Below, in pieces: positions 14,738-63,044 of a stretch of DNA of 64,000 bases. Origin of the DNA: a bacterium (GTDB lineage Bacteria > Hinthialibacterota > Hinthialibacteria > Hinthialibacterales > Hinthialibacteraceae); the NCBI GenBank assembly GCA_963663405.2, contig CAXXSM010000130.1, forward strand, positions 64,001-128,000, given 5' to 3'. The notes beneath the pieces are model-generated. The model worked only from the letters and a program-made list of their open reading frames with translations, had not been told where the DNA came from and searched no databases. Position numbers and translations under genes: made by a program. How positions within the stretch are numbered: position 1 is the first letter of the stretch; each line of letters starts with the position of its first letter.

Positions 14738-14767
14738 ATGACCATTTAGGTTGTTAGCGAGTTGAAG

Positions 14768-14798: not shown

Positions 14799-14799
14799 A

Positions 14800-14887: not shown

Positions 14888-15527
14888 AAACGGTTCTTAT
14901 ATGGCCAATCTGCAAATACATCTTTTTAATAGCTTTCATGTACGGGTGGAAACTTTTATGGATTCTTCAATTTGAAGATTTTGTAGAAACCAATTATTGA
15001 TTGAATCAGACAAACTTCTAATTTTGATTTTCAATTCATGTTTTTTGTATGTTTTTTATATTTCATATGATTTAACACTAATGAAATAAATTGAGTTGAA
15101 TAAGGTGTTTAGGATTTTCCATTCCATTCTATTCTTCCTTTGATGTAACGTTTTTTTCTGCATTAATTTAGTTTCAATTCTATCGATTTAAAGGATTTTG
15201 TGTAATAAATTAGTCATGTAAAAGGTTGTTCGACGAATAAAAAATACATAAAAACCTCTTTTCATTAATAAAAATTATGCTATAGTAATAGTAGTTAACA
15301 TTATATTCCTGATGCGTTGATCTTGTGTGGTGAGTATATTCTTATCTCGTTTTTTTTTGCTTGTAATGAAATATTGCATTTTATCTGTGGGTCTTTTTCT
15401 ATAATAAGTTCGTACAAATCGATATCAAAAGGAGAATTGCATGACAAAAATGATTGGATTTCTTTTTTAATATTTTTGTATTGAAGGTTGAGGTGATAGT
15501 GAGTTCCTTATTTGAATAATAATTATA

Positions 15528-15603
15528 GTGGAAGCGTTGAACCATTTTTTCTTTAATTGGTCGCCAATAGAAGAATGGGAAGCAAGTGGCGAACCCCCTC
15601 CAC
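15528..15603 (+). ncRNA. c-di-GMP-II-like riboswitch aptamer, copy 2
   Basis: Same core as copy 1 with a compensatory stem CCATTTTTTCT/AGAAGAATGG. Confidence 0.75.
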
Positions 15604-15645
15604 GCAATCGAAATCTTAAAATGATTACGTTCAGGAGGATTTAAA

Positions 15646-16617: not shown

Positions 16618-16650
16618 ACGTACGTTTTATGTTTTTTAGTAAGATAAAAG

Positions 16651-16682
16651 AAAGGGGATCAATTCACGATCCTCTTTTTTTA
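16651..16682. terminator. Bidirectional intrinsic terminator
   Basis: AAAGGGGATC-loop-GATCCTCTTT hairpin flanked by A and T tracts, between convergent genes. Confidence 0.7.
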
Positions 16683-16698
16683 TCTTCATTTGACGATT

Positions 16699-17931: not shown

Positions 17932-18066
17932 AAATTTTACACCTTTTTTCAAATTGATTTAAGATATATCTAAACTTGACGAAACTTATGACGAAACGGT
18001 GAGAAATCAAATAATCTATTACGAATTCATGGTTGAAACAATGTAAAATTTTCATATGCAGGTTTG

Positions 18067-18161
18067 TATGAAAATGAGTTTCTAGGATTTTCTCCATCGA
18101 GATTTCTTCTGCAACTCATTTTCATTTGCGTGTTGTAATCTCAATCATAATGGTTTATACG
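18067..18161 (+). mobile_element. Dispersed MITE-like element
   Basis: Inverted repeats ATGAAAATGAGT / ACTCATTTTCAT plus a conserved tail; absent from the paralogous region near 23200. Confidence 0.65.
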
Positions 18162-18841
18162 TAACGCTTCTTATATGGCCAATCTGCAAATTCATCTTTC
18201 AAATGGCTTTCATGAAAGGCGGGAAGCCTTTATGGATTCTTCAACCAGAAGAATATGCAGAAACCAATTATTGAGTGGATCAGTCAAAATTCTAATTTCG
18301 ATTTTCATTTCCTATTTTTTATGCGTTTTTTTTATTATATCATGAATTTTATAAGATTCCTGCTGTTTTTTATATTTCATACGATCTTACAGTTTTGTAA
18401 TAAATTGAGTTGAATAAGGTGGTTAGGATCTTCCTTTCAATCCTTTCCTTCCTTGGATGTAACGTTTTTTTCTTTATTAATTTTGTTCTAATTCTATCGA
18501 TTTAAAGGATTCCATGTAAAAATTTTATCATTAAAAAGGTTGTTCGACGAATAAAAAATACAAAAAAGTCTCTTTTCATCAATGAAAATTATACTATAGT
18601 AATAGTAGTTAACATTTTATTTCTGATGCGTTGATCTTGTGTGGTGAGTATATTCTTATCTCGTTTTTCTTTTACTTGTAATGAAATATTCTATTTTTTC
18701 TGTTTGTCTTTTTCTTATATGAGTTCATACAAATCGATAGTAAAAGGAGAATTGCATGATAAAAATGGTAGGATTCCTTTTGTAATATTTTTGTATTGAA
18801 GTTGAGGTAATAGTGAGTTCAATATTTGAATAATAATTACA

Positions 18842-18916
18842 GTGGAAGCATTGAACCATTTTTCTTTAATTGGTCGCCAATAGAAAAATGGGAAGCAAGT
18901 GGCGAACCTCCTCCAC
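18842..18916 (+). ncRNA. c-di-GMP-II-like riboswitch aptamer, copy 3
   Basis: Same core; perfect stem CCATTTTTCT/AGAAAAATGG. Confidence 0.75.
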
Positions 18917-18950
18917 GCAATCAAAAAATGGTTACGTTTTGGAGGTAAGA

Positions 18951-19092
18951 ATGTTTAAGAAATTAATTGTTAGTTTTTGTTTTATAGGAATTACCGGTTT
19001 ATTTCTGTCTCCCATAATCATGGCCCAGTCACCAATATCTTAAACTTTGCCTGTTCCTTGGTGTGGGGTGGATTATCAGGTTGAATTTCTGA
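18951..19092 (+). pseudogene. Truncated TED-protein paralog (signal peptide and first residues only)
   Basis: Hand translation MFKKLIVSFCFIGITGLFLSPIIMAQSPIS*TLPVPWCGVDYQVEF matches PVPWCDKDFMVHF. In-frame TAA at 19041; homology ends at a transposase fragment. Confidence 0.8.
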
Positions 19093-19094
19093 GG

Positions 19095-19280
19095 CGCCAG
19101 TTCACGATGCCAGCGAAGAATCGTATCCAGGGTGAAAATTGTCGAGATTTCCTTCAAAATTTTCCGCTCCAGAGTCTTTCCTTTGACCGCGAGCCGGGCC
19201 CTCTGTTAATCGTTGAGTAGAATATGCTTTTTGCCTTGGACTTCGAGGAGTAACTCGACCTCTGTCGCAGACAAAACGTT
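19095..19280 (-). mobile_element. Transposase remnant (N-terminal part of an integrase-core/rve IS transposase)
   Basis: Hand translation ...[45 protein letters not shown] resembles the LAxKGKxLGRK...[10 protein letters not shown] motif of such transposases; internal stop. Confidence 0.65.
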
Positions 19281-19281
19281 G

Positions 19282-20718
19282 TTAGTGAATGTCCCAGTTT
19301 TTCACTTCTACAGATCCGCCTATTTGAAACGTCTGGTAATACCGTGTAGTAAAACTATTCGGCCCTTCCGGTGGGGAATAAATGAGCATCTCACCAAAAT
19401 TATTGTCAGCGCCTCGTGAGATGACTATGTTCCCAGCCGGATCGAATTGAGCGTCTCGGATCGGATCCGCCCCCGCGATAAACGAGTCAAGTTCCGTACC
19501 ATCATCCATACTTAAGATATACACCATCCCATCAATCCCGTTACCAGAGGCTGCGAACCAACGACGCCCTTCATCTAAATCCAAAGACGGCCGGTCAACA
19601 ATGGCTTCCCATTCGCTCCGCATGAATTGCTCTCCATCTGGTCTAAATCCGTAGAGATCTCCCACCGAAGTCGTTACGTAGATATTTCCCTCAGAATCGG
19701 CAACGAGACTGAAGGGGGGCCCAGCGGCGGGAGGATCATAATTTAAATCCGGATCGAGAAATACTTCAGGAGGAGTCGTCCAGGGAAGCGCGGCGTCATC
19801 GGGTACATTGTATTTCATGATGCTGCCGGGAGTAATGCCGGGCAAGCTATGGTCAATGGTATAAATGACACGTTTCTCTCCCGTGCCCAAGATAAGCATG
19901 TCCGAAATCGTTCCATTCGTTGTAGGCGTTTTGCGGGGTTGGATATCGCCACTGTCTTTTGGCGGCGAATAATCAGCATGTAAGAAGATTTGGAATCCCT
20001 CGTCGGTGAACTCAGAATTACAGATGGTGTTCCACATCGTCCGATTGACATACGTGTTGGTATACACCCGTCCATCCGGCCCGAAGTTAAGCGCAATGGG
20101 CGCGTCATCATTGCTCGCAAAAACAAACGACATGTTGAGTTCCGGGAAAGCCGTGTCCAGCGATCCTCCCCACCAGGTTCCATCCGGAGACATAAAGTAA
20201 ATGCCTTTAAATACGTTTAAAGAATCGATAACCTTCGTTCGATTGACACTATTGCGACGTCCCTGAATGATATAAATTCGTCCAAAATTCGATCTGGATT
20301 GGTCCTTCCCAATTAAAACACCACGAGGACGATGAAAGACGTTTTGGGGATCGACTGGATTGATGCGTTCCCAGCTGGTATGGCCATTGTCCGAAGCGTT
20401 AATTTCAAATGTGTAAGTACCATCGGCAACGACTTGTCCCGCATCATCAAGACCGTCCCAGATAACATGGTTCATACCTTGCGCAGTGGAACCGGACAGC
20501 GTTCGTACAACAACACCATCTGATACACGTAGGATACGTAATTCAACACCGTTATCCGCGGCCTCATTGAGTAAATAATGAAATTCGCCTCCCACGCCTT
20601 CAGTGGAATCGACCTCAACCGACAACTGGCAGGCGAATACATTCGCGTCAGCGGATTTTGGGAGTAAAACAGCCAAACCGAAAATAAACAAATACCCTAA
20701 ATTGGAAAACCGTATCAT
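19282..20718 (-). CDS. Secreted protein, FlgD-Ig-like domain plus beta-propeller-like region
   Basis: Signal peptide; VRTL...WDGLDDAGQVVADGTYTFEI is FlgD-Ig-like; ends VEVKNWDIH. Confidence 0.7.
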   Translation of the reverse strand: MIRFSNLGYLFIFGLAVLLPKSADANVFACQLSVEVDSTEGVGGEFHYLLNEAADNGVELRILRVSDGVVVRTLSGSTAQGMNHVIWDGLDDAGQVVADGTYTFEINASDNGHTSWERINPVDPQNVFHRPRGVLIGKDQSRSNFGRIYIIQGRRNSVNRTKVIDSLNVFKGIYFMSPDGTWWGGSLDTAFPELNMSFVFASNDDAPIALNFGPDGRVYTNTYVNRTMWNTICNSEFTDEGFQIFLHADYSPPKDSGDIQPRKTPTTNGTISDMLILGTGEKRVIYTIDHSLPGITPGSIMKYNVPDDAALPWTTPPEVFLDPDLNYDPPAAGPPFSLVADSEGNIYVTTSVGDLYGFRPDGEQFMRSEWEAIVDRPSLDLDEGRRWFAASGNGIDGMVYILSMDDGTELDSFIAGADPIRDAQFDPAGNIVISRGADNNFGEMLIYSPPEGPNSFTTRYYQTFQIGGSVEVKNWDIH

Positions 20719-20772
20719 GGTTCTTCGTCCTTTCCTTATTTATTTTCCTCTTCATGAATCAAACCACTCAGA

Positions 20773-21600
20773 TTAAGGAACACGAAAATTAGCCGCTTGA
20801 GAGATTTCTTCGGAACTCATCGCTTCCCTGGCATTGGGTGGAAAGGAAAGCAATGCGTCGGCTGTTTCCTTGGCCAATTCACTGTCTGTGGTTTGGATGG
20901 CGAAGTGGATATAGGTAACCGTACTGTTGGCTGGAATCGTTATATCCGTCCAAGCATACCGATAGTCTTCCGAACGCTGGAATACTTCATCGATACCATC
21001 CACTGTTCCATTTGAGTTCCAGACATGACCAACGAAAGGATCACTCCCATCATTGTCACCCGTGATGACATAAGAATCACTGGTTTCCAGTTCCGTATCT
21101 CCGTCGGATGTCGCCACAATATACGTGTGATCATCGGATCCGAGATTGCCGAAAACCGCAATTTCCGCTGAAACCGGTTGATCGGTTGTGTTCGTGAGAA
21201 TTTCCAGCCACCGTCCGTACACTTCCTCTGGAGAAACAAAGAGTTTTCTTTGGACTACCAGAGCCCCCATCGTCTGGGTTTCCCAAACATACTCATTGCC
21301 ATCCGAATCAGGATCGTACTCTTTAATCAAGGCTATATAAGGCCGGAATACCCCATTCTCCCGGACCGCCAGAAAATAGCAGCCGTCATAGGCGTCACTG
21401 CTGCCATCCTCCAGCGCGCCGCTCCTTACACCCGCGTCATAAACCATCCCTTCACCATTCCGTAAATCACCGCATTGGTTGCCGTCTTCATTATCAAATG
21501 GTGGTGGCAGTGTCTGACTGCCCGCATCTACACTCAATAAGAGAATCACCAGCGTTATCCAACTACACCATTGCCATCGTTCATGCTTCATGATGAACAT
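20773..21600 (-). CDS. Secreted hypothetical protein (acidic, beta-rich)
   Basis: 275-aa ORF with hydrophobic N-terminus and GGAG RBS; about 55 bp from the next gene. Confidence 0.7.
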   Translation of the reverse strand: MFIMKHERWQWCSWITLVILLLSVDAGSQTLPPPFDNEDGNQCGDLRNGEGMVYDAGVRSGALEDGSSDAYDGCYFLAVRENGVFRPYIALIKEYDPDSDGNEYVWETQTMGALVVQRKLFVSPEEVYGRWLEILTNTTDQPVSAEIAVFGNLGSDDHTYIVATSDGDTELETSDSYVITGDNDGSDPFVGHVWNSNGTVDGIDEVFQRSEDYRYAWTDITIPANSTVTYIHFAIQTTDSELAKETADALLSFPPNAREAMSSEEISQAANFRVP

Positions 21601-21712
21601 CTCCCTTCATTGATTTAGTATAAGACTGTCAGCTCTCGTACTCTGAATACGAATCTCTCCCCACTAACTGGCAGAAATGCCTTCTATAAATTACAATAAA
21701 TATTATTTATAC

Positions 21713-21742
21713 TAACATAAATTTAACATAACACTAACATAA
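21713..21742. promoter_or_regulatory. Three direct repeats TAACATAA with exact 11-bp period (candidate response-regulator site)
   Basis: Repeats start at 21713, 21724 and 21735, upstream of the 21600(-) gene. Confidence 0.5.
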
Positions 21743-21832
21743 ATAAATTAAGTTAGCAAGACTCCTTACTAAGAATAAAGATCAATTAATTCATCAAAAA
21801 TGATTTGTGTAGATAGGCTTTTTTTGAGAGAT

Positions 21833-23066
21833 CTAATACAAAAACCCAATGGATGACAGGGGTAGCGCATTCATATGGATTCAGAGTATTTTGCGGTGAA
21901 TAGGCGACTCCATTGTTTAAGAATAGGCCATCTTCATCGAAAAATACTGGTTCCCCAATGTGATTCAACAGTGTCTTCACATCGTTCCAGTCCTCGCAAT
22001 CCAGATTGTTTCTCCGAATATCGATCGCGATTAACACTTCGATGTCTTGTTCTACATAGCCGGCTAGATTGGAGATGGAAGATAATTGGTTATCGTTGCA
22101 AGAGAAGCGTATGAATTTCGCATTTGGATGGATCGTTAATTCGCTTCGCTCGTTATCACCACAACTGAGAAAGGACAGCGATTCATTGGCTGAAAGATCG
22201 AGGATATCGAGCTGGTTTCCACTGCAGAAAAGGGATTGTAGTGCGGGATTTTGATATACATTGAGGATCGGCAATTGGTTGTTTGCGTATTCAAGGTAAT
22301 TTAATTTTGCGCTGTTTCCAAGATCGAGTTCCACGATCTGATTATCCGAGCAATAAAGTTTCTCTAATGAAGAGAGGTGAGATACGTCTAAAGTTAGGAG
22401 TTGATTGCGGTTGCAATCGAGAAATCTCAACTCCTCTAAATTCGACATGTTCAAATGAGTCAGTTGGTTGTCATCGCAGTAGATTTTATCGTACGGCGCT
22501 TGTTTTGAAATCACTAACGTTTTTATTTGATTTCTTTTACAACTGAGATAACACATGTTTGGATTGTTTGGTAAATCTAAACTTTCTAACTGATTCTCAA
22601 GGCATTCAAACTAGACCAAGGCTATATTGTCCGATAGATCGATATTTTTGATGTGGTTCCGATAACAGTACAAGTATTTCAATTTGGGGATATCAGAGAC
22701 ATTGAGACTGCTGATTTGATTGTTGTAACAACTCAAAGTCTTTAAATCGGTGTTGTTCCATAAATCCAGGTGGGTCAAAGCATTGTCAGAACAGTATAGT
22801 TCTTGAAGACTCGTAAAGAATTTAATACCGGTCAAATCCTGAATCTAACTCCCCAGACAGATTAGAGGACCTGTCATCAACGCAACATTTTCCGCTGTAA
22901 ATTCATCGCCCGACTCGACTCTCATGAATACTTCAACCGCTGTGCGGAAATTAGGATCGGGAAAATTATCGGGTGTGTTGATGTTTTGGGGTAAGGAATC
23001 TGCAATTGGAAAGAGAAAGAAAAGAAGAAACACGGTTGTTTTAAATGCGCTTGCGATGTCAAACAT
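21833..23066 (-). pseudogene. LRR protein pseudogene, paralog of 16699-17931
   Basis: Three ORF pieces are in one frame, separated by TAG stops at 22845 and 22611 (E and Q in the paralog). A +1 base at 21840-21844 masks the TPVIHWVLY* end. Confidence 0.85.
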
Positions 23067-23886
23067 AAATTTTACAACTTTCTTCTTAATGGACTAAAGA
23101 TATATCAAAACTTGACGAAACTTAGGACGGAACGGTGAAAAACCGGATACTTTTATTACGAATCTATGGTTGAGGCGCTGTAAATAATTCATTGTTAAGA
23201 GTAATAAACGGTTCTTAAAGTCCAATTTGCAAATTCATCTCCCTTTAGGTCTTCATGTAAGGTGGGAAACCTTGATGGTTTCTTAAGGAGATGAACATGC
23301 ATAAACCGATATTTGAATGAATCTGGTTAAACTTTTCATTTCGATTTTCTGATCATCTTTTTTTATGCGTTACTTATTATATCATGATTTAAAATGACTC
23401 CTTCTGTTTTTCATATTTCATGCGATCTAACAATCATGGAATAAATTGAATTGAATAAGGTGGTTAGGATTTTTCTTCCAGTCATTTCCATTCTAGTGTG
23501 TAACGTTTTATGATTCTAATTTTTTTTAAAAATCTATCGATTTAATTGATTTTATGTTAAAATTTAATTAGAAAAGAGGTTATTCGACAAAAAAAAATAA
23601 CAAAAAAACCTCTTTTCATTAATGAATATTGTGCTATAGTAATAGTAATTAACATTATGTACGGGGTGAATTAACATTCTGTATTGATCAGCGTATATTC
23701 TTGTTCTTATTTTTTATGTAATGAAACATTGCGTTGAATTTGTGTTTGAGTTTCTTTTTTTAAAAATTTGAAAAAAAATGAAAAGGAGAATTGTATGCTA
23801 AAAATGTAGGGATTCCTTCTCTAATTTTATTATGATTTTGGTTGAGGTGATAGTAAAGAAAGTGTTTTTAAAAAAACTTGATTAGA

Positions 23887-23961
23887 GTGGAAACGTTGAA
23901 CTATTCTTCTTTAATTGGTCGCCAACAGAAGAATGGGGAGTCAGTGGCGAACCCCCTCCAC
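23887..23961 (+). ncRNA. c-di-GMP-II-like riboswitch aptamer, copy 4
   Basis: Same core; stem CTATTCTTCT/AGAAGAATGG; different downstream hairpin sequence with the same topology. Confidence 0.75.
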
Positions 23962-23991
23962 GAGATTTTTCTCGCGAAGGAGAGAAGAGAA

Positions 23992-24909
23992 ATGAAGAAA
24001 CGATATGTCGTCTTAGTAAGTTGTATTGTTCTTGGTCTGGCTATGGCGCCAGTCAGTTATTCAACTCCATCAGAAGGGCCTTATTATTATCCTCATTTAG
24101 GTCATCTTTTGGAATTTCCCAATGGGCCGAATTGTACTCCTGGAATTGAAGATTATCAAGTAGACAGTTATTTCGGAGTTTCTATTCTTCCATGTGGTGA
24201 TCTTCCGGGATGGATCAATGATGCGATCAATATTTTTGTCGTCTGGTTTGATACACCATATGGTTTGATAAATAAAAGTCCGCGGGAGAGAATTGAAAAT
24301 GCGATTGGACAATCGCTACCTCCAACACAAGATATTGTCGCATGGATTTTCACGTTTATCGTGCCGCCGGATATTCCACAAAAGGTGATTCCCGGCTGGT
24401 GCGCCAATCTAAGGGACTACGCGAAATTAAACGATGTGTGTTGTGGGCTGACGATTCATGGAACGGTTGATATTTCTCCTTTAGGATTTTTAGATTGGAA
24501 TTGGTGTAACCGTACGTTGACATCCCGCTTTACTACTCCTATGGTCAATCAATCGGGTAATCTGCTCGAAGTGAATTTCCTGATCGATCAGTTCCGTATG
24601 AATTTCGTGATGTATCCGGATTTAAACACTCGCAATATTTCGTGGCGGGCGATTCAGCGTGTGATTTGGGATTTGACACAGGATTTGAGTCTCCCTGGCA
24701 CTCATCAAAATGGTTATATTTGTCTTACAAACAAAGATTTAGAAGATGTAGATATCCTTAAAACATGGATCGCCGGTTTGGATTTAGAGGGCAATATCCC
24801 GATTTGCGCGTTCTGTTATTTGACGATTGTCATCTATTGTGAAGGTGGACAAGAAATTCTCGTCGAAGTGCCGTGGTGGCTGTATCTGATTCTTTACGAT
24901 TTACATTAA
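23992..24909 (+). CDS. Secreted thioester-domain-like protein, divergent copy 3
   Basis: ATG at 23992 starts a signal peptide (MKKRYVVL); IPGWCANL, AIQRVIW and GGQEILVEV align with the motifs of copies 1 and 2. Confidence 0.65.
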   Translation: MKKRYVVLVSCIVLGLAMAPVSYSTPSEGPYYYPHLGHLLEFPNGPNCTPGIEDYQVDSYFGVSILPCGDLPGWINDAINIFVVWFDTPYGLINKSPRERIENAIGQSLPPTQDIVAWIFTFIVPPDIPQKVIPGWCANLRDYAKLNDVCCGLTIHGTVDISPLGFLDWNWCNRTLTSRFTTPMVNQSGNLLEVNFLIDQFRMNFVMYPDLNTRNISWRAIQRVIWDLTQDLSLPGTHQNGYICLTNKDLEDVDILKTWIAGLDLEGNIPICAFCYLTIVIYCEGGQEILVEVPWWLYLILYDLH

Positions 24910-27172: not shown

Positions 27173-27553
27173 TCAAGATTGAACTTTCTTGGTCTTCCTT
27201 GAAGGGGAAAGATGCGCTAAGGGGACAAATTCAATCTGGATTTTCTGGTTCATGGCGGTGGCGATTTTTCGTAGCATGGAAAATGAATGTCCCTCGTAAT
27301 CCGCTGATTCCAAACGGGATATGACCGATGGTGTGGTTCTTATCCGTTCCGTCAGTTCTTTTTGGATTAAACCAACCTCTTTTTGCAAATCATAGATCAT
27401 TCGAGCGACTTCGGCGTTTTCACGCTCTTCCTGCAGGCTTTCCAGACGTTCCGGTCTTCCTTCGTAATATCGCCGGTATAGTATTTCCAGGCTGTTATTG
27501 GTTTTTGTGTGTTTATTCATAGTTTCCATAGTAAACACATTCAATGAATTCAT
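27173..27553 (-). CDS. XRE-family HTH protein (antitoxin-like, no adjacent cognate toxin); start uncertain
   Basis: QKEL..RI.TTPSVISRLESADYEGHS.SMLRKIA motif. Confidence 0.7.
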   Translation of the reverse strand: MNSLNVFTMETMNKHTKTNNSLEILYRRYYEGRPERLESLQEERENAEVARMIYDLQKEVGLIQKELTERIRTTPSVISRLESADYEGHSFSMLRKIATAMNQKIQIEFVPLAHLSPSRKTKKVQS

Positions 27554-28533
27554 GAAGAACTCAAATCGTCATTATTCTCCGCCAAAGCCGTCTCCTCTGG
27601 TATCCCTGTCAGTGTTTTCGCGCAGATGGTTAGGGTGATCAATCCAACGCCTACAGCGAACCAGAGAGTGCAGAGGCGGACCAGGAAGGTGGCGGAGGCG
27701 GCGGCGCTTTGGGGGATGGCGTATTGTTGGATCAGGAGGAATCCCATCGCGCCTTCGGTGGGTCCGACCCCACCTGGAGTCATAAGCAGCGCGCCCACGA
27801 TTGTGGCGAACGCGTAGATGAACGAAGCGGTTACAAGCGGCAATGGCGTTCCAAATCCCCATAATACAAGGTAAAACGCTATACATTCCATGAACCAGGA
27901 AACCAGACTGATCAACACCGCCCACAAGAGGGGCTTGAAAGCGATTAACTGATAGGCGCTTTCATAGGCGGTGCGGAGCGAATGCGCTTTGGCGCCGATC
28001 GCGGGGAATCCTTCCAGCCACTGGATGACTCTTTCCACGCCGGTTTTCCATGAGACGAAAATAAGGGTGAAAAGAATGATTCCGACGCTGATGGAGAAGA
28101 TCGTCAAGCCGTTGGGGAGGCTCATCACGCCCAGCAGCGCGATGATTAAAAACGCGATGAAATCAGTAAAACGTTCGGCCAGGACGACGGGGGCGGATTT
28201 GCTGATTGGAACGTTCGTCATCCCTTTCAGCAGATAGGATTTATAGACTTCTCCAAACTTGCCGGGCGTCGCCGACATGACGAGTCCGGCCAGAAAAATC
28301 TGAAACGATCGTTTCCAGTCCAATGGTATCTTGAGAATGCCAAGATAGTAATGCCACTTTGTGAACCGGATTATATAATTGCTGAACGCGAAGGCCAGAC
28401 AGAGTGGAATGAGTTCCCAGTGGAACTGAGAAAACGTGGTCAGGATCTGTTCCCAACCGGCCCAGATCGAGCAGAGTAAATAGAAAACCGCCGTTACTGC
28501 GATTGTGAATAGGAGTTTTTTCTTAAAGTTCAT
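27550..28533 (-). CDS. Lysylphosphatidylglycerol-synthase TM / flippase-like (UPF0104) membrane protein
   Basis: TPGKFGE, ERFTD, TPGGVGPTEG and RLCTLW motifs; multiple TM segments. Confidence 0.85.
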   Translation of the reverse strand: MNFKKKLLFTIAVTAVFYLLCSIWAGWEQILTTFSQFHWELIPLCLAFAFSNYIIRFTKWHYYLGILKIPLDWKRSFQIFLAGLVMSATPGKFGEVYKSYLLKGMTNVPISKSAPVVLAERFTDFIAFLIIALLGVMSLPNGLTIFSISVGIILFTLIFVSWKTGVERVIQWLEGFPAIGAKAHSLRTAYESAYQLIAFKPLLWAVLISLVSWFMECIAFYLVLWGFGTPLPLVTASFIYAFATIVGALLMTPGGVGPTEGAMGFLLIQQYAIPQSAAASATFLVRLCTLWFAVGVGLITLTICAKTLTGIPEETALAENNDDLSSS

Positions 28534-28548
28534 GAGGGCTCCAGGGGA

Positions 28549-29367
28549 TTAGATGTACCACCAAATCAATAGCAAGCCAAGGGGGATCAGGTAGACGCTG
28601 AAGTAGTGCAGGCGCCGTTTTTGGATCAGCCAGACCAACAGCCATAAAAAGACCACTCCAGAAACGAGAGAAGCGAAGAATCCAACCAGGGCCTGCGCCG
28701 GTGTCACGTTAAGAGAAGCGTGGGGCAGTTGATAGACCATCGCCGCCGCGATCGCAGGGATCGAGATTAAAAACGAGTATTCCACCGCGATCGTACGCGA
28801 GACGCAGAGGAGCAATGCGATACCCACCGTCGTTCCGGAACGGGAGATCCCCGGTAGAACGGCGATTCCTTGCGCCAATCCCATGATGGACGCGAACAGC
28901 CATAGATTCATGGGCAGTGAATTATAGTCCTCAGTGTTGGGAGCGCTCCGGAATCGGGTGGAGAAGAGAAAGAGCCCCATGAAAAAAAACGCGCAACCGA
29001 TCGCCAGCAGACTTTCCCGCATATAGGTTTCCGCCAGGGGCCGCAGCGTCAGGGCGATGCAACATGTGATCGCGAAACTGAGTCCGATCGCGAGGAGCAA
29101 TTGGCGCTGGATTTGAAGCTCCGGCGACTTTGGTCCAGCCTGAAACCAGGAAACGAAAGCGCGGCAGAGTAGAAACAGGCGTGTCCGGAAATATAAACAG
29201 ACCGCCAGGAGAGTCGCGATATGAAGAAGGACGTCGAAAAATAAAAAACTTCGCGCGTCCAAATCGAGCCACGTTTCCGCCAAGACCAGATGGCCGGAAC
29301 TCGAGATAGGAAGAAATTCGGTTAAACCTTGTAAGACTCCGAGGAACAACGCATCGAGGACGTTCAT
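28549..29367 (-). CDS. uppP: Undecaprenyl-diphosphate phosphatase
   Basis: QGLTEFLPISSSGH and PGISRSG signature motifs. Confidence 0.95.
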   Translation of the reverse strand: MNVLDALFLGVLQGLTEFLPISSSGHLVLAETWLDLDARSFLFFDVLLHIATLLAVCLYFRTRLFLLCRAFVSWFQAGPKSPELQIQRQLLLAIGLSFAITCCIALTLRPLAETYMRESLLAIGCAFFFMGLFLFSTRFRSAPNTEDYNSLPMNLWLFASIMGLAQGIAVLPGISRSGTTVGIALLLCVSRTIAVEYSFLISIPAIAAAMVYQLPHASLNVTPAQALVGFFASLVSGVVFLWLLVWLIQKRRLHYFSVYLIPLGLLLIWWYI

Positions 29368-39229: not shown

Positions 39230-39634
39230 AAAACGATCGAGTGGCTCTTCGCGGCCGCGTTGTATTGATATCGTTTCGGTATTAACAATCTACGATCGTA
39301 TGAGAGTATTCGAATCGTCATACAGAAATTACTCTTTACAGTATCTTATGCGCGCCAAAATAAACTGAGAAGGGTTTAAGGAACTGGGAGGGTTTTTTTC
39401 CCCTATTTTCATTGAATCGGCGTTCGTTGTATGGCGCGTTAGTATGATGTTATAATAAGTATTATTCTCCAATATCGTGGTGTACAGGGATCTTACGCTA
39501 GACAGAAATGATGAACAGAAGACATAATAGGAATTGATATAATGAAATGGCATATTGTCGAATCTACGGCGATTGTCTTTTCTATTCGATGCTATTATCC
39601 TGTTCGTTTATTGCAAATTGGGAACCCATATAGA

Positions 39635-40936
39635 ATGTCAGACAATTACAAATTAGATTGTATTCATACGAAACAAGATTGGGATCAGTGGCTGCGGAAA
39701 TGCCGCGAGGTGGATCTTCAGCAGACGTGGGAGTACGGGGAGAGTGTGAAGCGTTGTATCGGATGGGAACCGGACCGGCGGTTAGTTCTCGAAGGCGGCG
39801 TTCCCGTGGCGATGGTCCAGACTTTAATCAAAGACGTGCCAATCTTGGGCCGTGTGGCTCGAATGCAGCATGGGCCTCTGTTTCTGGAAAATGAAGAATC
39901 TTTTTCGTCGTCAAGAGCTATTCAGGCGATCGATTTTCTACGCGGGTATTGGGTGGAGGAAGAGAAGGTGATTCTTCATTTAGCCCCTTGTTTGCTTGCG
40001 GGAGATTTACCTGTCGATTGGGCGGAGAAAACCGGTTTTAAATCCACGAATGAACCCGTTTGGGCGTCGATCCGGATGGATCTGCGTCTTGATGAGAAAA
40101 CGTTGCATAGTCATCTGAAACGGAAATGGCGGGCGCCTCTTCAAAAGGCGGAGAAAGCGGGATTGGAGGCGGTCTGGAGCCAGTCCGAATCGGATTTTGA
40201 ATGGACGCTGGAAAAATACCGGCGGCAAACGGTTGAAAAAGGCATTTCCTGGCCGTCGGCTGAGTTGACACAAGGGCTTTGGAATGAAGCCAAAGAATCG
40301 ATGCGGATGGTTTTCGCGGAAAAAGATGGGGAACGTGTCGGTGTCCTGTTGTCGATCGCGTATGTGGATAGCGCGTTTGGATTATTGATTTGGGAAAGCC
40401 CTCATTCGCGGACCTTGCACGCCCATAATTTTTTAGATTGGCGGTCGATCTTGTATTACCAGGAATTGGGGTATCGATGGTTTGATCTGGGGGGGATCGA
40501 TCCAGAAAATCTGCCGGGCATAACGAAGTTCAAACGGGGGACGGGGGGGCAGGAGTATACGCTATCCGGCGCGTTTGAGGCGCGCCCGTCCGGCGCTGGA
40601 ACAGGAAGGATATCCGGCGAGGATGATTTAGGTCATGTGCTGACAGGCTTGCGGCTGCCGGGTCAATCGCAGGAAACGGGCGCTGATGTCGAAGACCAGG
40701 TTGAAGCGCTATTAATCAAGTTTGTCCAAGACACGACGGGATTCAATATTGGGCAGGATACGAGTCAATCGTTGATCGAAAGCGGTCTAATTGATTCGTT
40801 GAGCATCATTAGCCTTGTGCAGGCGCTGCAGGAGACATTTGATATCGAAATCTCGTTTCAAGACTTAACGCTGGAGAATTTTGACCGGCTGCAATTGATA
40901 TGCGAACTGGTGCAAGCGAAAATGGTTAATCGTTGA
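39635..40936 (+). CDS. FemABX/GNAT-like domain fused to a C-terminal acyl/peptidyl carrier protein; start uncertain
   Basis: LQQTWEYG, HGPL and FDLGG...GITKFK..TGG are Fem-like; LIESGLIDSL...LQETFDIEI...LTLENF is a phosphopantetheinylation motif. Confidence 0.8.
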   Translation: MSDNYKLDCIHTKQDWDQWLRKCREVDLQQTWEYGESVKRCIGWEPDRRLVLEGGVPVAMVQTLIKDVPILGRVARMQHGPLFLENEESFSSSRAIQAIDFLRGYWVEEEKVILHLAPCLLAGDLPVDWAEKTGFKSTNEPVWASIRMDLRLDEKTLHSHLKRKWRAPLQKAEKAGLEAVWSQSESDFEWTLEKYRRQTVEKGISWPSAELTQGLWNEAKESMRMVFAEKDGERVGVLLSIAYVDSAFGLLIWESPHSRTLHAHNFLDWRSILYYQELGYRWFDLGGIDPENLPGITKFKRGTGGQEYTLSGAFEARPSGAGTGRISGEDDLGHVLTGLRLPGQSQETGADVEDQVEALLIKFVQDTTGFNIGQDTSQSLIESGLIDSLSIISLVQALQETFDIEISFQDLTLENFDRLQLICELVQAKMVNR

Positions 40937-41018
40937 TCCACTACATACATTAATCATTCCCGGTGGATCGATAATGTGCGATCCATGCGGCGTTACTGAA
41001 TTCTGAGATGACGGTGAT

Positions 41019-42461
41019 ATGAATTTTCATTCCTGGTTTTTTGGTTTTTTTTTGATCCTTGTTTATGCGTTGTATTTATCTTTCCGGCGCCAAGGGCAAA
41101 ATCGTTTACTGTTAGTGGCGAGTTATTTTTTTTATAGCGCTTGGGATTGCCGGTTTCTTCTCCTGATTTTCATTACCAGCGTGACGGATTATTTCTGTGG
41201 TTTAAAGATCGCGCAGTCTAAAGAGAAAAAGACGCGGAAGGCGTACTTATTGTTGAGCGCCGGCGTCAATTTATCGATCCTTTTTACGTTTAAGTATTTC
41301 AATTTTTTTCTTGAAAATTTCTACGCGCTCATTGCGCTTTTCCATATTGAAATGCAGGCGCCGGTTTGGAATATCATCCTGCCGGTGGGGATCTCCTTTT
41401 ATACGTTCCAATCAATGAGTTATACCATCGATGTGTACCGGAATCAGTGCAAACCCACACGGAATTTTCTTGATTACGCGTTATTCGTTTCGTTTTTTCC
41501 GCAGCTGGTCGCCGGTCCCATCGAACGCGCCCGGAATCTTCTCCCTCAGTTGCTTTCCCCCCGGATTCTCCAGCGGAAACAGATCTCTGAGGGATTATTT
41601 CTTATTTATTGGGGGCTGTTCAAAAAATTATTCATCGCTGATAACTTGGATGATTTCCTCTTTTTTTTGGGCAGCAAAGGAACCGCGGGAGCCGAAGAAG
41701 GGGGCGCGTTGGTTTTAGTTTCAGCGTATGGGTATTTAATGCAGTTATACTGTGATTTCTCCGCATATTCGGATATCGCCCGTGGGGTAGCGAAACTATT
41801 CGGCATTGAAATCATGGATAATTTTAATGCGCCGTTCTTCGCGTCAAACATTCAAGAGGTTTGGGCGAGGTGGCATATCAGCCTGACCACCTGGATTCGG
41901 GATTATTTATACTACCCATTGGCGTTATTACGCGTCCGGAAAAGACATATCCCACCCAAAGCCGTGATTGTCATCACGTTTGTGATTATGGGGCTTTGGC
42001 ATGGAGCCGCTTGGAATTATATCTTATGGGGACTTTATCACGGACTCGCGCTTGCTGTTTACGCTTCGATCGCGCCTTGGATCAAACGGCGGCGTTTCTC
42101 ATCAGCCCCGCGTTTGCTTCGTATTCTTATACGCGCGCTTTCTGTGACGTTCACGTTCCACATTTCCGTGATCGGAATTCTTCTGTTTCAAGCGGAATCG
42201 CTCGAGCAGATTCTGGTCTGGTTTTCATGTTTATTAACACGCTTTTCTATCCCACCTGGAACGATGGAACTTTTTTCTCTTGTGATTTTGTATACGCTGC
42301 CGCTGTGGATTTTTGATTTTCTCTTATATCGATATAAAAGCCTCGAACGATTGTTTCAATTTCCGGCTGTGGCGCGGTATTGTTTTTTATACATTACGTT
42401 CTTCTTGTTGATGCTCTATGGATCCAAGGCGAAAAGCAGTTTTATTTACTTTCAATTCTAG
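41019..42461 (+). CDS. MBOAT O-acyltransferase (AlgI/PatA/DltB family)
   Basis: LPVGISFYTFQ, FPQLVAGPI, DFSAYSD, WHISL..W.RDY and GLWHGA motifs; C-terminal FIYFQF. Confidence 0.95.
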   Translation: MNFHSWFFGFFLILVYALYLSFRRQGQNRLLLVASYFFYSAWDCRFLLLIFITSVTDYFCGLKIAQSKEKKTRKAYLLLSAGVNLSILFTFKYFNFFLENFYALIALFHIEMQAPVWNIILPVGISFYTFQSMSYTIDVYRNQCKPTRNFLDYALFVSFFPQLVAGPIERARNLLPQLLSPRILQRKQISEGLFLIYWGLFKKLFIADNLDDFLFFLGSKGTAGAEEGGALVLVSAYGYLMQLYCDFSAYSDIARGVAKLFGIEIMDNFNAPFFASNIQEVWARWHISLTTWIRDYLYYPLALLRVRKRHIPPKAVIVITFVIMGLWHGAAWNYILWGLYHGLALAVYASIAPWIKRRRFSSAPRLLRILIRALSVTFTFHISVIGILLFQAESLEQILVWFSCLLTRFSIPPGTMELFSLVILYTLPLWIFDFLLYRYKSLERLFQFPAVARYCFLYITFFLLMLYGSKAKSSFIYFQF

Positions 42462-42487
42462 CGCGAGGGAAAGGAGACTATGACATC

Positions 42488-43651
42488 ATGGATCGAGAAG
42501 AATTGGGATGGAAACAAGCGCTTCCTTTCCTTTGGCATAGCCGACGATTCTTTTGTATTGTGGCGGCGTTGTTCCTTTTAGAATTGGCGCTGGCCCCGGT
42601 TTTTTCTTCATGGCTGCCGGAATCCTGGTATCTTGGTTATTTCTTAACCTGGCGGGCGGTCAAAACGTCCGAACTCATTATGAATGGAGAGGACATTGTA
42701 GAAGTGGATGAGGTTTGCGGGTGGCGCAACCGGCCTTATTCGGTTGATAAACTTGAACGCATTTATTACGATCAATATGGTTCCCGCTCCTACGGCGGGA
42801 TCGAGATTGGCGCGCGGAAGAAACGGCGGATCGTGTTTCTCGGTGATTCACGGATTAACGGATGGGCCAAAGTTAAAAACGATCAAACAATTAACGCCTA
42901 TTTAGAAAACGACACGATTGAAACGCTGAATTTTGGAACGGAACTGTTTGGTTTAGATCAATCGTATTTAGCTATGCCGAGGATTGTGGACCGCTTTCAA
43001 CCGGATGTGTTTGTGATCGGTCTTGATTTGGAAGAACTTAATTTCCTTGATAGCACATACCTGCCGTTTACCCGGCGAAGATCAAAACCGCTGTTGAAGC
43101 CCCATTTCGTATTAAAGGGGAATCAACTCCAGTTGAAAACTCTTCCGATTCGAGAGCTGATGGAAAATGTCCCTGACAATCCAGCGTTATTGGAATATCT
43201 TCGGGAACATGATAATCATTTTGATTCCTTTGAACGTTTCAAAAAATGGGAATTCACTCCTTTCTTGAATATACTGACCAGAATCAATAATTTCTTGCGA
43301 ACCGAAAATGAGGAGATCCAGTATTATTTTAAAACAGAAGGCTGGGAACCGATTTCAAATATGCCTCTCATCAAAGCGCTCATCAAAGAATGTAAAACGT
43401 ACACGGATGAGAAACAAATCACATTGGTTTTTATTCTTCTGCCCAGTTTTAAGATCCTAAAATCTGAATGTGAGGAGTACACATCGATTCTCACCCTCCT
43501 GGAGACTCTTTCAATCAAGTATGTCGATGTGAAAAGTCTCTTGCAAGAACGGGTGAGTATTCTCAATCGTTTTTATGCGGATAACGATCATTTCACTGCA
43601 AGAGGGAATCAGCTGATCGCTGAAGCCTTGGCCCGCGCGCTTGAAGATTGA
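42488..43651 (+). CDS. Membrane-anchored SGNH/GDSL-family protein
   Basis: FLGDS nucleophile motif and DNDHFT..GN; one N-terminal TM. Confidence 0.85.
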   Translation: MDREELGWKQALPFLWHSRRFFCIVAALFLLELALAPVFSSWLPESWYLGYFLTWRAVKTSELIMNGEDIVEVDEVCGWRNRPYSVDKLERIYYDQYGSRSYGGIEIGARKKRRIVFLGDSRINGWAKVKNDQTINAYLENDTIETLNFGTELFGLDQSYLAMPRIVDRFQPDVFVIGLDLEELNFLDSTYLPFTRRRSKPLLKPHFVLKGNQLQLKTLPIRELMENVPDNPALLEYLREHDNHFDSFERFKKWEFTPFLNILTRINNFLRTENEEIQYYFKTEGWEPISNMPLIKALIKECKTYTDEKQITLVFILLPSFKILKSECEEYTSILTLLETLSIKYVDVKSLLQERVSILNRFYADNDHFTARGNQLIAEALARALED

Positions 43652-60240: not shown

Positions 60241-60434
60241 TTTGCTATGTCCTCAGAATCGTTGTAACACATAGTGCCCAGAACGGATGAAACGGTCAAT
60301 GGCTGACAGAAGGATCAAGAAAAGCGCGGACAAGTATCCAAAATGAAATTTTTTTTTATTGAGGATAAAAACGTATATAATTACTGTATTAGTAATTTAT
60401 TATTCTTATTCAATCACATTTTTTGGAGGTCAGT

Positions 60435-63044
60435 ATGAGAAAAACGTATTTCTGCATTGGTTTGGTCTGTTTGGGAATGGTTTTGGGAATGGGAGTTTGG
60501 GCGGATGAATGGGATCCAAGGGATGATACGCCCTATGGGGCGACAAATTTAGGCGTCATTCCTTACGATGGGATTGAACATCCTGATCATACTCTGAATC
60601 CGAGTGATACAGAAGATTTTTTCCGTTTCACACTTCGAGGAGGATATTCATATGGGATTTATTCGATGGGTTATTATAACGCAGATTTAACTGGATATAT
60701 GATTGACGAGGAAGGCCAGGAATATTGGGATGAAGAATCTGGTTTTAATTCAAACTTTGCTTTTATTATTTCTCCAAAGGAAAACACGAGTAAGGAATTT
60801 ACACTGCGAGTAATGAGACAAACTGATGCAGGTGATTACAAATATGATTTGTATATTGAGGCTTTTGATGATCCCTGGGATCCGAATGAAGATACGGATA
60901 CAGCGACAAATTTAGGACGGCCCACGGATAAGGAACAGACCTTAGGTCCCCTCGTTTTAGGTGGGATTAATTACGATGATGGAGGCGCAAGTGATTCTAG
61001 TGATATTATTCAATTCTTCCTGGAAAAAGATAAAACGTACACGTTTTGGACGACAGGGCAAAATGATACGCGTGCCACTTTGCGGCAAGGGTCAACCTTA
61101 GGAACGATTTTAGGGAATGATGAAGATAGCGGTCCGGACAAGAACTTCAAGATCGAATATACACCTACAAGTGATGTCCGAGTTTATCTGAAAATTGGAA
61201 TGAATGCGGATGAGGGCGCGTATACGCTTCACTACCTTCATGAACCGGAAGTGGAACAGCTTGATCCCTGGGAACCGGATCACCCCTACGACAATGCGAC
61301 GCCCTTAGATGTACCCACTGATCAATGGCAAACCAATGGACCTCATCTTCTTAAAAAAAATATTGATGATGAAGATTATTTCCGATTTGAACTGCCCTCA
61401 GGACAAAATTATATTTTTAGGGCGAAGGGCAATGCGAAAGCGGATGGACAAATCTTAGATAAATATGGCCGTGTCGTCAAATTAGAACCCTTTAGCGGGA
61501 ATCCAGAATATCCATTTGTCATTGATTACCGTGTATTGTATCAAGGTGTCTATTATATCGCCGCCATATTATTTGCACCGGAAGATAACGTTGAATATTC
61601 CTATGAACTTTCCTATATCGGTTCCCATGAACCAGAAGCGGTGGAATTAGATACACCCACGGAAGAAGAACAGGTTCTTTCGTCGCAGAAATTGGAACCG
61701 AGTGATATTCATTGGTATAAGTTCGTTCTATTTGAAGGAGTTCGATATGAATTCTGGTCTACTGGCGGTTCTGATGTCTACGCGGAACTCTACAAACACG
61801 ATACGAGCAGGCAAGTTCAGGTAGACGATGATAGTAGTGATGGGATGAATTTTAAAATCGACTACAAACCATGGGAATCCGACGCGTTTTACCTCGCCGT
61901 ACGATCGAACGATCATGGGGAAATGGCGGAATACGATCTTCATTATAAAATCGTTACAGTCAGTACGGATACAGTGATTGGTGGTGAAATCGTCAATTCC
62001 GCCGTTCTAGAGACTGTCGATATCCCCATTTATGTCGAGAATCTAGCCGAAACGAAATCGATGACGTTTGATGTTGTTTTTGATTCGGATAAACTCGCTT
62101 GGGGATCGGACGCCCGTGTGATCCGGTTGGATACGATGTTGGCCGCCTGGGTGAATATTCAAGCCAACGAGGTTGAGCCGGGCCGTCTTCGCGTCGCGGC
62201 TACCGCGTTCGCCGGCTCTGGTGTTGAAAGAGACGGGGTGTTGGTGATTCTCCGGTTCGATGTTGGAAGCGGTGTCGAAGAAAATTCTCATACAACAATT
62301 TCTTTCGAGAATCTTAAAGATGGGCTGCAAGGCGCGCAGACAGATGATGTTCTTATCATTTTCACGATCAAACCCGAAAAAGGGGATGTGAATATGGATG
62401 GGGAGATCACCGCGTCTGACGCGCAGCTGGCGTTTCAAATATCACTCGACTCCGCCGGTGATGTGACCGAAGATCAAATCTGGGCGGCGGATATGACCGA
62501 GGACGGCGTTGTCACGGCGGAAGACGCTCAACAGATTCTTCTCGCGGCGGCGGGGATTAATCTTTCTGGGAAAACCGTTCGTCCTCAAGCCTTGGGTGAT
62601 GAAACGGAGGGAGATGATTATACGATCATCACGGTGGAACGGGTACAGGCCGCTCCTGGTGATTCGGTCTCTGTGCCTGTGCGAATCGATCCAGACCGCG
62701 ATATCCGGGCGATTTTCGTCGAATTTTCTTATGACCGGAACAAGATGTCGTTCGTTGGGGAAGATTTTGAGGGAACGATGCTTGAACGATTCTATTTTGC
62801 TGGAACCAGTGAATATTATCCGGGCAAAGTGCGTCTAGCCGCCGCCGCTTCTCTCAATCGTCCCATCCAGGAAGAGGGTGTGCTGTGCAAACTGAATTTC
62901 AAGGTCAATGATGACGCTTCGGGTGTTTCCACAATTTCAATCAAAACCGTTCTGGATGATCTTCTCGGCGCTGAAACCGTGACCGGTTATGTCGCGATTC
63001 TCGAAGAAGAGATGACAACAATTGGGAACTGGATGGTGTATTAA
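60435..63044 (+). CDS. Secreted protein: about four PPC-like beta modules + cohesin-like + dockerin + cohesin-like
   Basis: GGAGG then ATG at 60435; duplicated Ca-loop GDVNMDGEITASDA / ADMTEDGVVTAEDA; V.IPIYV..FDVVFD and VSVPV..FSYD cohesin patterns; ends TTIGNWMVY. Confidence 0.75.
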   Translation: MRKTYFCIGLVCLGMVLGMGVWADEWDPRDDTPYGATNLGVIPYDGIEHPDHTLNPSDTEDFFRFTLRGGYSYGIYSMGYYNADLTGYMIDEEGQEYWDEESGFNSNFAFIISPKENTSKEFTLRVMRQTDAGDYKYDLYIEAFDDPWDPNEDTDTATNLGRPTDKEQTLGPLVLGGINYDDGGASDSSDIIQFFLEKDKTYTFWTTGQNDTRATLRQGSTLGTILGNDEDSGPDKNFKIEYTPTSDVRVYLKIGMNADEGAYTLHYLHEPEVEQLDPWEPDHPYDNATPLDVPTDQWQTNGPHLLKKNIDDEDYFRFELPSGQNYIFRAKGNAKADGQILDKYGRVVKLEPFSGNPEYPFVIDYRVLYQGVYYIAAILFAPEDNVEYSYELSYIGSHEPEAVELDTPTEEEQVLSSQKLEPSDIHWYKFVLFEGVRYEFWSTGGSDVYAELYKHDTSRQVQVDDDSSDGMNFKIDYKPWESDAFYLAVRSNDHGEMAEYDLHYKIVTVSTDTVIGGEIVNSAVLETVDIPIYVENLAETKSMTFDVVFDSDKLAWGSDARVIRLDTMLAAWVNIQANEVEPGRLRVAATAFAGSGVERDGVLVILRFDVGSGVEENSHTTISFENLKDGLQGAQTDDVLIIFTIKPEKGDVNMDGEITASDAQLAFQISLDSAGDVTEDQIWAADMTEDGVVTAEDAQQILLAAAGINLSGKTVRPQALGDETEGDDYTIITVERVQAAPGDSVSVPVRIDPDRDIRAIFVEFSYDRNKMSFVGEDFEGTMLERFYFAGTSEYYPGKVRLAAAASLNRPIQEEGVLCKLNFKVNDDASGVSTISIKTVLDDLLGAETVTGYVAILEEEMTTIGNWMVY

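Follow-up and report, generated by a model that had tools for sequence, protein, structure and literature searches.

The 64,000-nucleotide (nt) stretch analyzed here (contig CAXXSM010000130.1, positions 64,001 to 128,000, from a bacterium of the Hinthialibacterota; hereafter the window) carries three co-oriented, tightly spaced genes on the + strand at positions 39635-43651 (Table 1). The first encodes a Fem-like transferase fused to a phosphopantetheinyl carrier domain, the second a membrane-bound O-acyltransferase (MBOAT); the third encodes a putative membrane-anchored SGNH transferase. In the model that we favor, the sequences and structure predictions discussed below suggest that these three genes could be the conserved core of a Dlt-like, carrier-fed envelope acylation relay. 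A first-pass annotation of the same DNA had described this cassette as a Fem/GNAT-carrier fusion, an MBOAT ending in FIYFQF and an SGNH protein; gene content, common orientation and coordinates were all borne out.

The genes are separated by 82 nt (genes 1 and 2) and 26 nt (genes 2 and 3). The start of gene 1 was placed at the ATG at 39635, as backed by the alignment of homologues, with a longer open reading frame (ORF) from 39542 also present. For gene 3, a TTG start at 42380 was rejected and the actual start is the ATG at 42488. A promoter-like site lies upstream of gene 1, and 14 such sites were counted in the region against 7.7 expected from shuffled sequence, which makes this weak evidence for the site.

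The Fem-carrier fusion is rare. A word-based search returned 33 relatives, among them, beyond the window's own cluster (P0004), 27 full-length fusions of 415-511 residues with the source labels Desulfonema magnum, candidate division KSB1, Omnitrophica and Electryoneaceae, and 5 unfused relatives of 337-344 residues. An exhaustive HMMER search over 1.84 billion representative sequences gave 3603 hits, with about 11 full-length and 2 fragmentary ones covering the carrier. At the genome level, the window's phylum has the fusion in 5 of 35 species genomes, all from one family; of the 401 genomes sampled from the D. magnum phylum 1 has it, and of the 401 sampled from its order 4 do.

Where the fusion is present, its neighbors recur. 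The MBOAT gene follows the fusion in 12/12 contexts with DNA at that position (the window, L004, L009, L017, L018, L019, L020, L022, L023, L158, L159 and G451:C270), and the SGNH gene follows the MBOAT gene in 9 of 10, the exception being G823, where an SGNH orthologue is found ~100 kb away. The gap between fusion and MBOAT genes is 18-50 nt in the relatives, and the two genes overlap in L018. The arrangement is not due to chance, the same gene order being present in relatives of at least two phyla. The flanks of the fused form differ in every lineage. In a quick tree, the window fusion falls outside the clade of its own family (support 99) and beside the D. magnum clade (support 80, weak); because it groups with the latter rather than with its own family, the tree hints at horizontal transfer of the cassette.

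Table 1. Genes and features of the cassette in the window (aa, amino acids; AF2, AlphaFold2; HMM, hidden Markov model; pLDDT, predicted local distance difference test)
Feature	Position	Strand	Basis or remark
Promoter-like site TAGACA, 18-nt spacer, CATAAT	39499..39528	+	Consensus scan, 10/12 matches, upstream of gene 1
Gene 1, Fem-like transferase-carrier fusion, 433 aa	39635..40936	+	Translation, Pfam, NCBIfam, AF2
FemX-fold double-GNAT domain, residues 1-323	39635..40603	+	Foldseek, HMM alignment
Invariant Lys300 codon	40532-40534	+	33/33 aligned rows
Disordered linker, residues 324-348	40604..40678	+	pLDDT <50
Carrier (PP-binding) domain, residues 349-433	40679..40933	+	PF00550 9.9e-6, above cut-off
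Carrier Ser388 codon in GLIDSL	40796-40798	+	Asp-Ser in 28/28 fused rows
Gene 2, MBOAT, 480 aa	41019..42461	+	PF03062 4.6e-24
MBOAT His328 codon	42000-42002	+	RWHISL invariant
MBOAT C-terminal FIYFQF, Tyr477 codon at 42447-42449	42441-42458	+	Predicted shuttle motif
Gene 3, putative membrane-anchored SGNH transferase, 387 aa	42488..43651	+	Motifs, AF2 model, SGNH fold
Gene 3 Ser121 codon	42848-42850	+	G(D/N)S serine
Gene 3 Asp365 to His368	43580-43591	+	DxxH

Several other features of the relatives were recorded. Unfused forms of the Planctomycetes type (P0032, P0033, P0042 and P0044) are nested within the fused clade on a long branch of the midpoint-rooted quick tree; they may reflect carrier loss rather than the ancestral state. 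In G012 and G001 (L017 7475-15220 and L018 389-7109), the cassette sits amid Tad/Flp pilus genes, with TadE and RcpC on one side and a TadG-like gene on the other, a setting not seen in the window or the other lineages. In G612 (L159 7939-9219, - strand), a divergent gene for a membrane acyltransferase of the OpgC/AT3 type lies directly upstream of the Fem-carrier gene.

Fem-like domain and tethered carrier

Pfam ranks Acetyltransf_6 first for the initial ~320 residues of the fusion (1.2e-9, above cut-off), and the window protein matches FemAB (PF02388) at 3.6e-4 with 19.9 bits, below the 24-bit gathering cut-off that orthologues pass (45.2 bits in D. magnum, and 43.2 bits). The PEP-CTERM-associated FemAB-like model TIGR03019 also matches this domain (1.8e-6). 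The AF2 model of the fusion, built from a 33-row alignment, has a mean pLDDT of 88.9 and consists of two well-folded parts with a disordered join. Its best Foldseek match is Weissella FemX (E 2.5e-17, TM score 0.74 normalized to target length, 330 columns), and ranks 1-11 are held exclusively by aminoacyl-tRNA-dependent transferases, namely FemX of Weissella and S. aureus, the peptide synthases Sbb17/Sba18 of the streptothricin type and FemA, with MprF/A-PGS coming after them. The same proteins are found by sequence with a family profile (~1e-10).

The profile alignment to FemX stops exactly at Phe304-Lys305, so that Lys300 of the fusion corresponds to FemX Lys305. At residue 299, 30 of the 33 rows have Phe, 2 have Tyr and the last has His, so that 32 are aromatic here. 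A Lys/Arg-rich segment with near-invariant W165, R166 and K171 is aligned to FemX 167-180, and FemX Arg211 is aligned with the Pro of a conserved SWPS motif. Because we take Arg211 of FemX to bind the peptidoglycan precursor, its replacement suggests that the acceptor of the Fem domain probably differs from that of FemX. As for the catalytic residue, PMC12945691 gives Lys305 as the sole reactive residue in FemX and the same Phe-Lys pair as essential in DhpH-C. The structural ranking and the Lys300-Lys305 match agree with the first-pass annotation, which had placed the domain in the tRNA-dependent class; it is the fold neighbors only that suggest aminoacyl-tRNA as the donor.

This domain could alternatively take an acyl group from acyl-coenzyme A (acyl-CoA) or from its own loaded carrier, like other GNATs. 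The first rank of Acetyltransf_6 and the sub-threshold FemAB score would fit such a donor, as would the acetyl-CoA-binding tandem GNAT 2wpw, the first of its kind among the Foldseek matches, at rank 15. All better structural matches are tRNA-dependent, however, the Phe-Lys dyad of FemX and DhpH is retained, homologues exceed the FemAB cut-off, and Q/RxxGxG/A, the CoA-loop motif of GNATs, was not seen by eye after the central strands. Even with carrier-dependent GNATs on record (PMC11685415), we consider a non-tRNA donor improbable.

The ~25-residue linker is poorly conserved and of variable length among homologues. Behind it, the carrier that was likened to DltC at first pass has a serine that is invariant in 28/28 fused sequences. 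DltC is its best NCBIfam match (8.7e-7; 28.9 bits against a cut-off of 68). Its profile matches in the PDB are to DltC and to carrier proteins of the peptidyl and aminoacyl kind, which it resembles more closely than it does fatty-acid acyl carrier proteins. No carrier of this type other than the Fem-fused one was detected in any of the phylum's five cassette genomes, and a gene of the AcpS type is present in the window's genome. When the carrier region was the sole query, the one protein retrieved was that of the window itself. The nearest stand-alone carrier relatives found (G006, G038 and G056) each adjoin an AMP ligase (3/3); these pairs were considered as ancestral Dlt-like cassettes and rejected, with no MBOAT or SGNH gene detected nearby (phmmer, 1e-3). 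Prediction of a complex between the Fem domain (1-323) and the carrier (349-433) scored 0.01 and was counted neither for nor against their interaction.

Many relatives of the Fem domain (P0050, P0051 and ~60 other rows) are proteins of ~700 residues whose C-terminal portion is the Fem part. Among them, P0050 has a tandem Fem-Fem layout, and P0051 has a weakly DegT-like N-terminal half that matches a separate gene of 381-384 codons upstream of unfused Fem genes in polysaccharide loci.

MBOAT and SGNH proteins

The RWHISL, WHG and terminal (F/Y)IYFQF motifs are invariant in 8/8 MBOAT orthologues, which upholds the Tyr shuttle motif fused to the MBOAT proposed in the first-pass annotation. DltB chains are the only PDB sequence matches of the MBOAT (2.7e-38, query positions 95-391), and residues 392-480 form an extension past the DltB core that bears FIYFQF. 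The DltB model TIGR04091 gives the window protein 176.9 bits, below its cut-off of 375 bits.

The product of gene 3 has one N-terminal hydrophobic helix and the motifs FLGDSR and DNDH; the G(D/N)S serine is invariant in 8/8 orthologues, and DxxH is present in the 6/6 complete ones. Pfam gave merely a weak ALGX match (0.004), and no NCBIfam or DltD family match was found. The AF2 model built from 8 orthologues (pLDDT 79.9) has an SGNH fold, with CgnD, TesA and Axe2 as Foldseek matches. In the VIA comparison, GDSL esterases matched with Z 16-18.7 and PatB with Z 16.2 (root-mean-square deviation 3.0 over 175 aligned residues).

The window's genome has 5 MBOAT genes in all, each ending in F(I/L)YFQF. 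The four further genes, on contigs C84, C106, C49 and C29 of G000 (L144, L148 and L149), are 33-42% identical, and in the three paralogues with both flanks fetched each is followed by a partner gene of 376-383 codons, with no carrier nearby. The phylum seems rich in MBOAT acylation pairs.

Such paralogues raise the alternative that the cassette MBOAT and SGNH proteins are an ordinary acetyl-CoA-dependent O-acetylation pair of the same kind, the Fem-carrier gene serving another process. The shared C-terminal motif and the carrier-free partner genes of the paralogues fit this explanation, as does the failure of the DltB model to tell cassette MBOATs from paralogues; for the same reason, the cassette MBOAT, being no more DltB-like than its carrier-less paralogues, is not called a DltB orthologue here. 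What speaks against an independent pair is that the Fem-carrier gene precedes this MBOAT subfamily in all 12 contexts, across phyla, and that the genes are set close together (82 nt apart in the window and 18-50 nt in the relatives) or overlap (L018). We therefore give it little credit.

Adenylation enzymes and genomic setting

As stated in the first-pass annotation, no AMP-ligase gene is found in the window: none of its 35 ORFs of at least 150 residues has an AMP-binding match in Pfam. The contig (C130) has no PF00501 match either, and the 3 found in the genome lie on C16, C160 and C76; none is DltA-like and none is near the cassette. The assembly is 82% complete, which bears on every ligase absence reported for this genome. 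Two of the three genes were rejected as loaders, both being only distant relatives of the partner ligases described below: the C16 gene, which is moreover broken into three ORFs, and the C76 gene, a weak AMP-binding match of 431 residues. The C16 ORFs (L119 1363-2465) are of 82, 105 and 168 residues with an internal TGA, and the sequence suggests either a pseudogene or an assembly error. The C160 gene is followed by a gene fusing a PP-binding domain to a PlsC-type acyltransferase (L124 8460-11029), and the pair looks like an acyl-carrier-dependent lysophospholipid acyltransferase module.

A different picture emerged from the relatives, in two clades. In clade B, both D. magnum (L004) and metagenome contig L020 have, next to the SGNH gene and convergent with it, a gene for an ANL ligase of 510-526 residues. 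This holds for 2 of the 6 loci where DNA covers that place; these ligases share 57% identity, and the remaining flanks are not syntenic. With the top 3 candidates per genome scored in the order sample of 401 genomes, 3 of the 4 cassette genomes (G061, G823 and G451) and 0 of the 397 others had an orthologue of this ligase (E up to 1e-100). The orthologue in G823 is ~10 kb away from the SGNH gene that is displaced in that genome. The clade A ligase is of another type, with TIGR03098 as its best model (408.9 bits, below cut-off) and 190 bits against the DltA model, and it is followed by a pyridoxal phosphate (PLP)-dependent decarboxylase of the ornithine/diaminopimelate (Orn/DAP) type. Orthologues of both genes were found in the 4/4 other cassette genomes (G001, G003, G005 and G012) and in 0/30 non-cassette genomes, three of which have merely 30-32% identical paralogues of the ligase. 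This pair is 8-11 kb away from the cassette in both G005 and G012 and has no carrier gene of its own nearby. It stands beside genes for giant LamG and leucine-rich-repeat proteins (L123 2623-5474 and L019 1-2709); pairs of a TIGR03098-like ligase and an Orn/DAP-type decarboxylase are, we assume, also present in exosortase A loci. The window's genome yielded no orthologue of either partner ligase or of the decarboxylase.

In total, a dedicated ligase co-occurs with the cassette in 8 of the 10 genomes or contigs that carry it. The cassette family is not ligase-free, and because the relatives nearly always own an ATP-dependent loading enzyme, the system is probably not loader-free. The adenylation-enzyme-free system put forward at first pass is not supported in that form, given the ligase orthologues of both clades. 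On the narrower point of a dltA-like ligase, none was found in the window's 82% complete genome, as that idea implied, and the homologous clusters turned out to be largely ligase-bearing at the genome level. Of the two roles suggested for the Fem domain, loading or extending an aminoacyl group, extension fits the data better, and loading fits less well with relatives that have ligases.

Direct loading nevertheless deserves consideration. The Fem domain would then move an aminoacyl group from aminoacyl-tRNA straight to the thiol of its own carrier, replacing DltA, and the ligases of the relatives would be accessory, for instance by adding a second building block. The Fem domain is N-terminal to the carrier, the usual place of a loading domain, and the three-gene core alone is kept everywhere, the ligases differing by clade; the window's genome and G612 have an intact cassette and neither ligase type. 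GNAT domains that work with carriers are known from CurA, GphF and SbzI (PMC11685415). Set against this are the dedicated ligases of 8 of the 10 genomes or contigs, the incompleteness of the window's genome, and the accessible part of PMC12945691, which describes no Fem-family enzyme with a thiol acceptor. We regard direct loading as quite unlikely; if true, it would be the first case of a carrier thioester loaded from tRNA, and a surface polymer would be aminoacylated by a route that is coupled to translation and needs no ATP-dependent ligase.

The surroundings of the cassette in the window are unrelated housekeeping and surface genes by Pfam scan. Upstream, on the opposite strand, lie genes for a pfkB kinase, a family 2 glycosyltransferase and a class-V aminotransferase, and downstream, convergent with the cassette, dxs, ispA and xseA; the Pfam scan of the window ORFs found no murein genes near the cassette. 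Further away, at 27550-29367 (- strand), a protein of 327 residues consists of the MprF-type membrane domain only (LPG_synthase_TM, 1.8e-41), without the synthase domain, and its gene adjoins that of a BacA undecaprenyl-diphosphatase. Positions 2-11128 (+ strand) hold four large ORFs in series (558, 1284, 929 and 994 residues) with no Pfam match at 1e-5. The stretch from 12000 to 24000 has a low guanine-cytosine fraction (0.35-0.39 versus 0.45-0.52 elsewhere) and encodes several leucine-rich-repeat proteins and an FlgD_ig protein, and a protein with cohesin and dockerin domains is encoded at 60423-63044.

Proposed relay and known systems

Taken with a confidence somewhat short of even, our proposal is a relay of the Dlt kind: the carrier would usually be primed by a ligase, its cargo would be extended by the Fem domain with an amino acid brought by tRNA, and the product would be exported by way of the MBOAT, its Tyr and the SGNH protein. 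The carrier would first be phosphopantetheinylated, possibly by the product of the AcpS-type gene of the genome; a dedicated ANL ligase, its gene located elsewhere, would then prime it with an acid or an amino acid; that priming is usually ATP-dependent is suggested by the clade-specific recurrence of a dedicated ligase. The Fem domain would next act in cis, joining an amino acid taken from aminoacyl-tRNA to the cargo on the carrier and so taking the place of a condensation domain, as PacB does on a peptide bound to a non-ribosomal peptide synthetase (NRPS). That it would work on its own carrier arm is suggested by the conservation of the core and the flexibility of the tether. The loaded carrier would dock at the cytoplasmic face of the MBOAT, and the acyl group would pass to Tyr477 of the MBOAT tail, from there, outside the inner membrane, to the SGNH protein's Ser121, and finally, as an ester, to an envelope polymer. 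If the window's genome truly lacks a ligase, the priming step would drop out, and the Fem domain itself would have to charge the thiol. PMC12148441 reports that the Tyr shuttle operates in PatA/PatB, whose MBOAT has the motif fused to it, and that DltB/DltC make use of a carrier.

Several points weigh against this relay. Gene order alone speaks for carrier use by the cassette MBOAT, because the cassette MBOATs (168-180 bits with the DltB model) are no closer to DltB than are the paralogues that lack a carrier (147-171 bits). The ligase may not be obligatory, since G612 has the cassette and no ligase orthologue, and the window's genome likewise has neither type. The two ligase types are not orthologous (~29% identity), which would be odd for the fixed loader of a conserved carrier, and because the genomes compared are kin, their co-occurrence with the cassette may partly reflect shared descent or linkage. 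We know of no Fem enzyme that acts on a Dlt-type carrier. Lastly, the 12 invariant positions of the Fem domain are common to unfused cousins in polysaccharide loci, so its acceptor could be a sugar rather than carrier cargo.

This last point leads to a model of two jobs in one polypeptide, where a ligase-loaded carrier feeds the MBOAT and the Fem domain, in the manner of its VimA-like unfused cousins, aminoacylates a cytoplasmic amino-sugar precursor of that same polymer and never the carrier. In addition to the residues shared by fused and unfused forms, the closest unfused homologues (36-40% identity) were found in polysaccharide loci in 4/4 cases examined (L026, L029, L036 and L075), next to genes for CE4 deacetylases, DegT-like proteins, glycosyltransferases and Wzy. 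For VimA/VimE of Porphyromonas, PMC7468200 proposes that a sugar is deacetylated and then receives Ser or Gly. No deacetylase or sugar-synthesis gene accompanies the fused form, however, whose flanks differ per lineage, and the retention of a flexible-linker fusion across several phyla, in 28 sequences, would be more expected of a domain acting on the tethered arm. A sugar acceptor with separate jobs is therefore unlikely in our judgment, although it is an explanation to be taken seriously.

The proposed relay resembles the Dlt system in its phosphopantetheinyl carrier (best family match DltC), its MBOAT (only solved sequence relative DltB), the Tyr-containing FxYxxF shuttle, the putative membrane-anchored SGNH transferase and the ANL ligase owned by relatives. 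It differs in that the carrier, small and free-standing in the case of DltC, is fused behind a FemX-type domain, that the shuttle motif lies within the MBOAT and not in a separate DltX microprotein, and that the operon has no DltA-type gene, nor did the search of the window's genome turn one up. Whereas Dlt adds D-alanine to teichoic acids in Firmicutes, tRNA would give L-amino acids or glycine, and the hosts of the cassette are uncultured bacteria of a small phylum and Desulfobacterales. According to PMC12148441, DltB takes D-Ala from DltC and passes it to the Tyr in the FxYxxF tail of DltX.

With PatA/PatB and AlgI/AlgJ/AlgX, the cassette shares an MBOAT of ~480 residues with extra C-terminal helices and a hexapeptide end (FIYANF in PatA, according to PMC12148441), and, with PatA/PatB in particular, a separate adjacent SGNH partner with Ser, Asp and His, the PatB structural match included. 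PatA-type MBOATs, as described in PMC12148441, carry the hexapeptide on two extra helices, use acetyl-CoA as donor and have no similar carrier protein. This acyl-CoA-dependent, carrier-free class contrasts with the cassette, where a carrier gene always precedes the MBOAT gene.

The Fem domain itself has the double-GNAT organization, the Phe-Lys dyad and the FemX-aligned basic segment of FemX, FemA, MurM, Sbb17/Sba18, Orf11, DhpH-C and VlmA, and differs from FemX at the Arg211 position. To our knowledge, none of these enzymes has been reported fused to a carrier. The Fem domain belongs to the family of VimA/VimE and the TIGR03019 proteins, and its nearest unfused cousins pair with CE4 deacetylases as VimA does with VimE; unlike the fusion, VimA/VimE and the TIGR03019 proteins are unfused, are encoded in glycan synthesis loci and presumably act on cytoplasmic amino sugars. 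The loading GNATs of CurA and GphF, and SbzI, are similar in that a GNAT fold works with a phosphopantetheinyl carrier, but they have acyl-CoA or acyl-carrier substrates, a single GNAT domain and no relation to tRNA. PacB, a tRNA-dependent enzyme of the Fem-like kind by which alanine is joined to the growing peptidyl chain of an NRPS (PMC12945691), is a precedent for Fem chemistry on assembly-line cargo. It differs in being free-standing, in belonging to an antibiotic (pacidamycin) pathway and in having a product that is not exported via an MBOAT. The substrate of PacB is reportedly carrier-tethered.

Every part of the cassette is familiar, unlike the combination and its implied chemistry. In the literature searched, supplements not included, we found no description of a Fem-carrier fusion or of a Fem-carrier-MBOAT-SGNH cassette, in agreement with the first-pass annotation, which had not recognized the arrangement as described. 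PMC12148441 distinguishes two kinds of MBOAT-SGNH systems, Dlt with a carrier and a separate DltX, and the rest with acyl-CoA, no carrier and a fused shuttle. The cassette mixes both, combining a Dlt-type carrier with a PatA-type fused shuttle, and adds a Fem domain on the carrier. The full chromosome of D. magnum strain 4be13, a bearer of the cassette, is on record. As this strain is, we presume, a cultured organism, the idea should be testable. If the Fem domain works on tethered cargo, an aminoacyl or dipeptidyl decoration would be built by a minimal ligase-carrier-Fem line and exported by the MBOAT; if true, this would tie translation substrates to surface chemistry beyond peptidoglycan and lipid aminoacylation.

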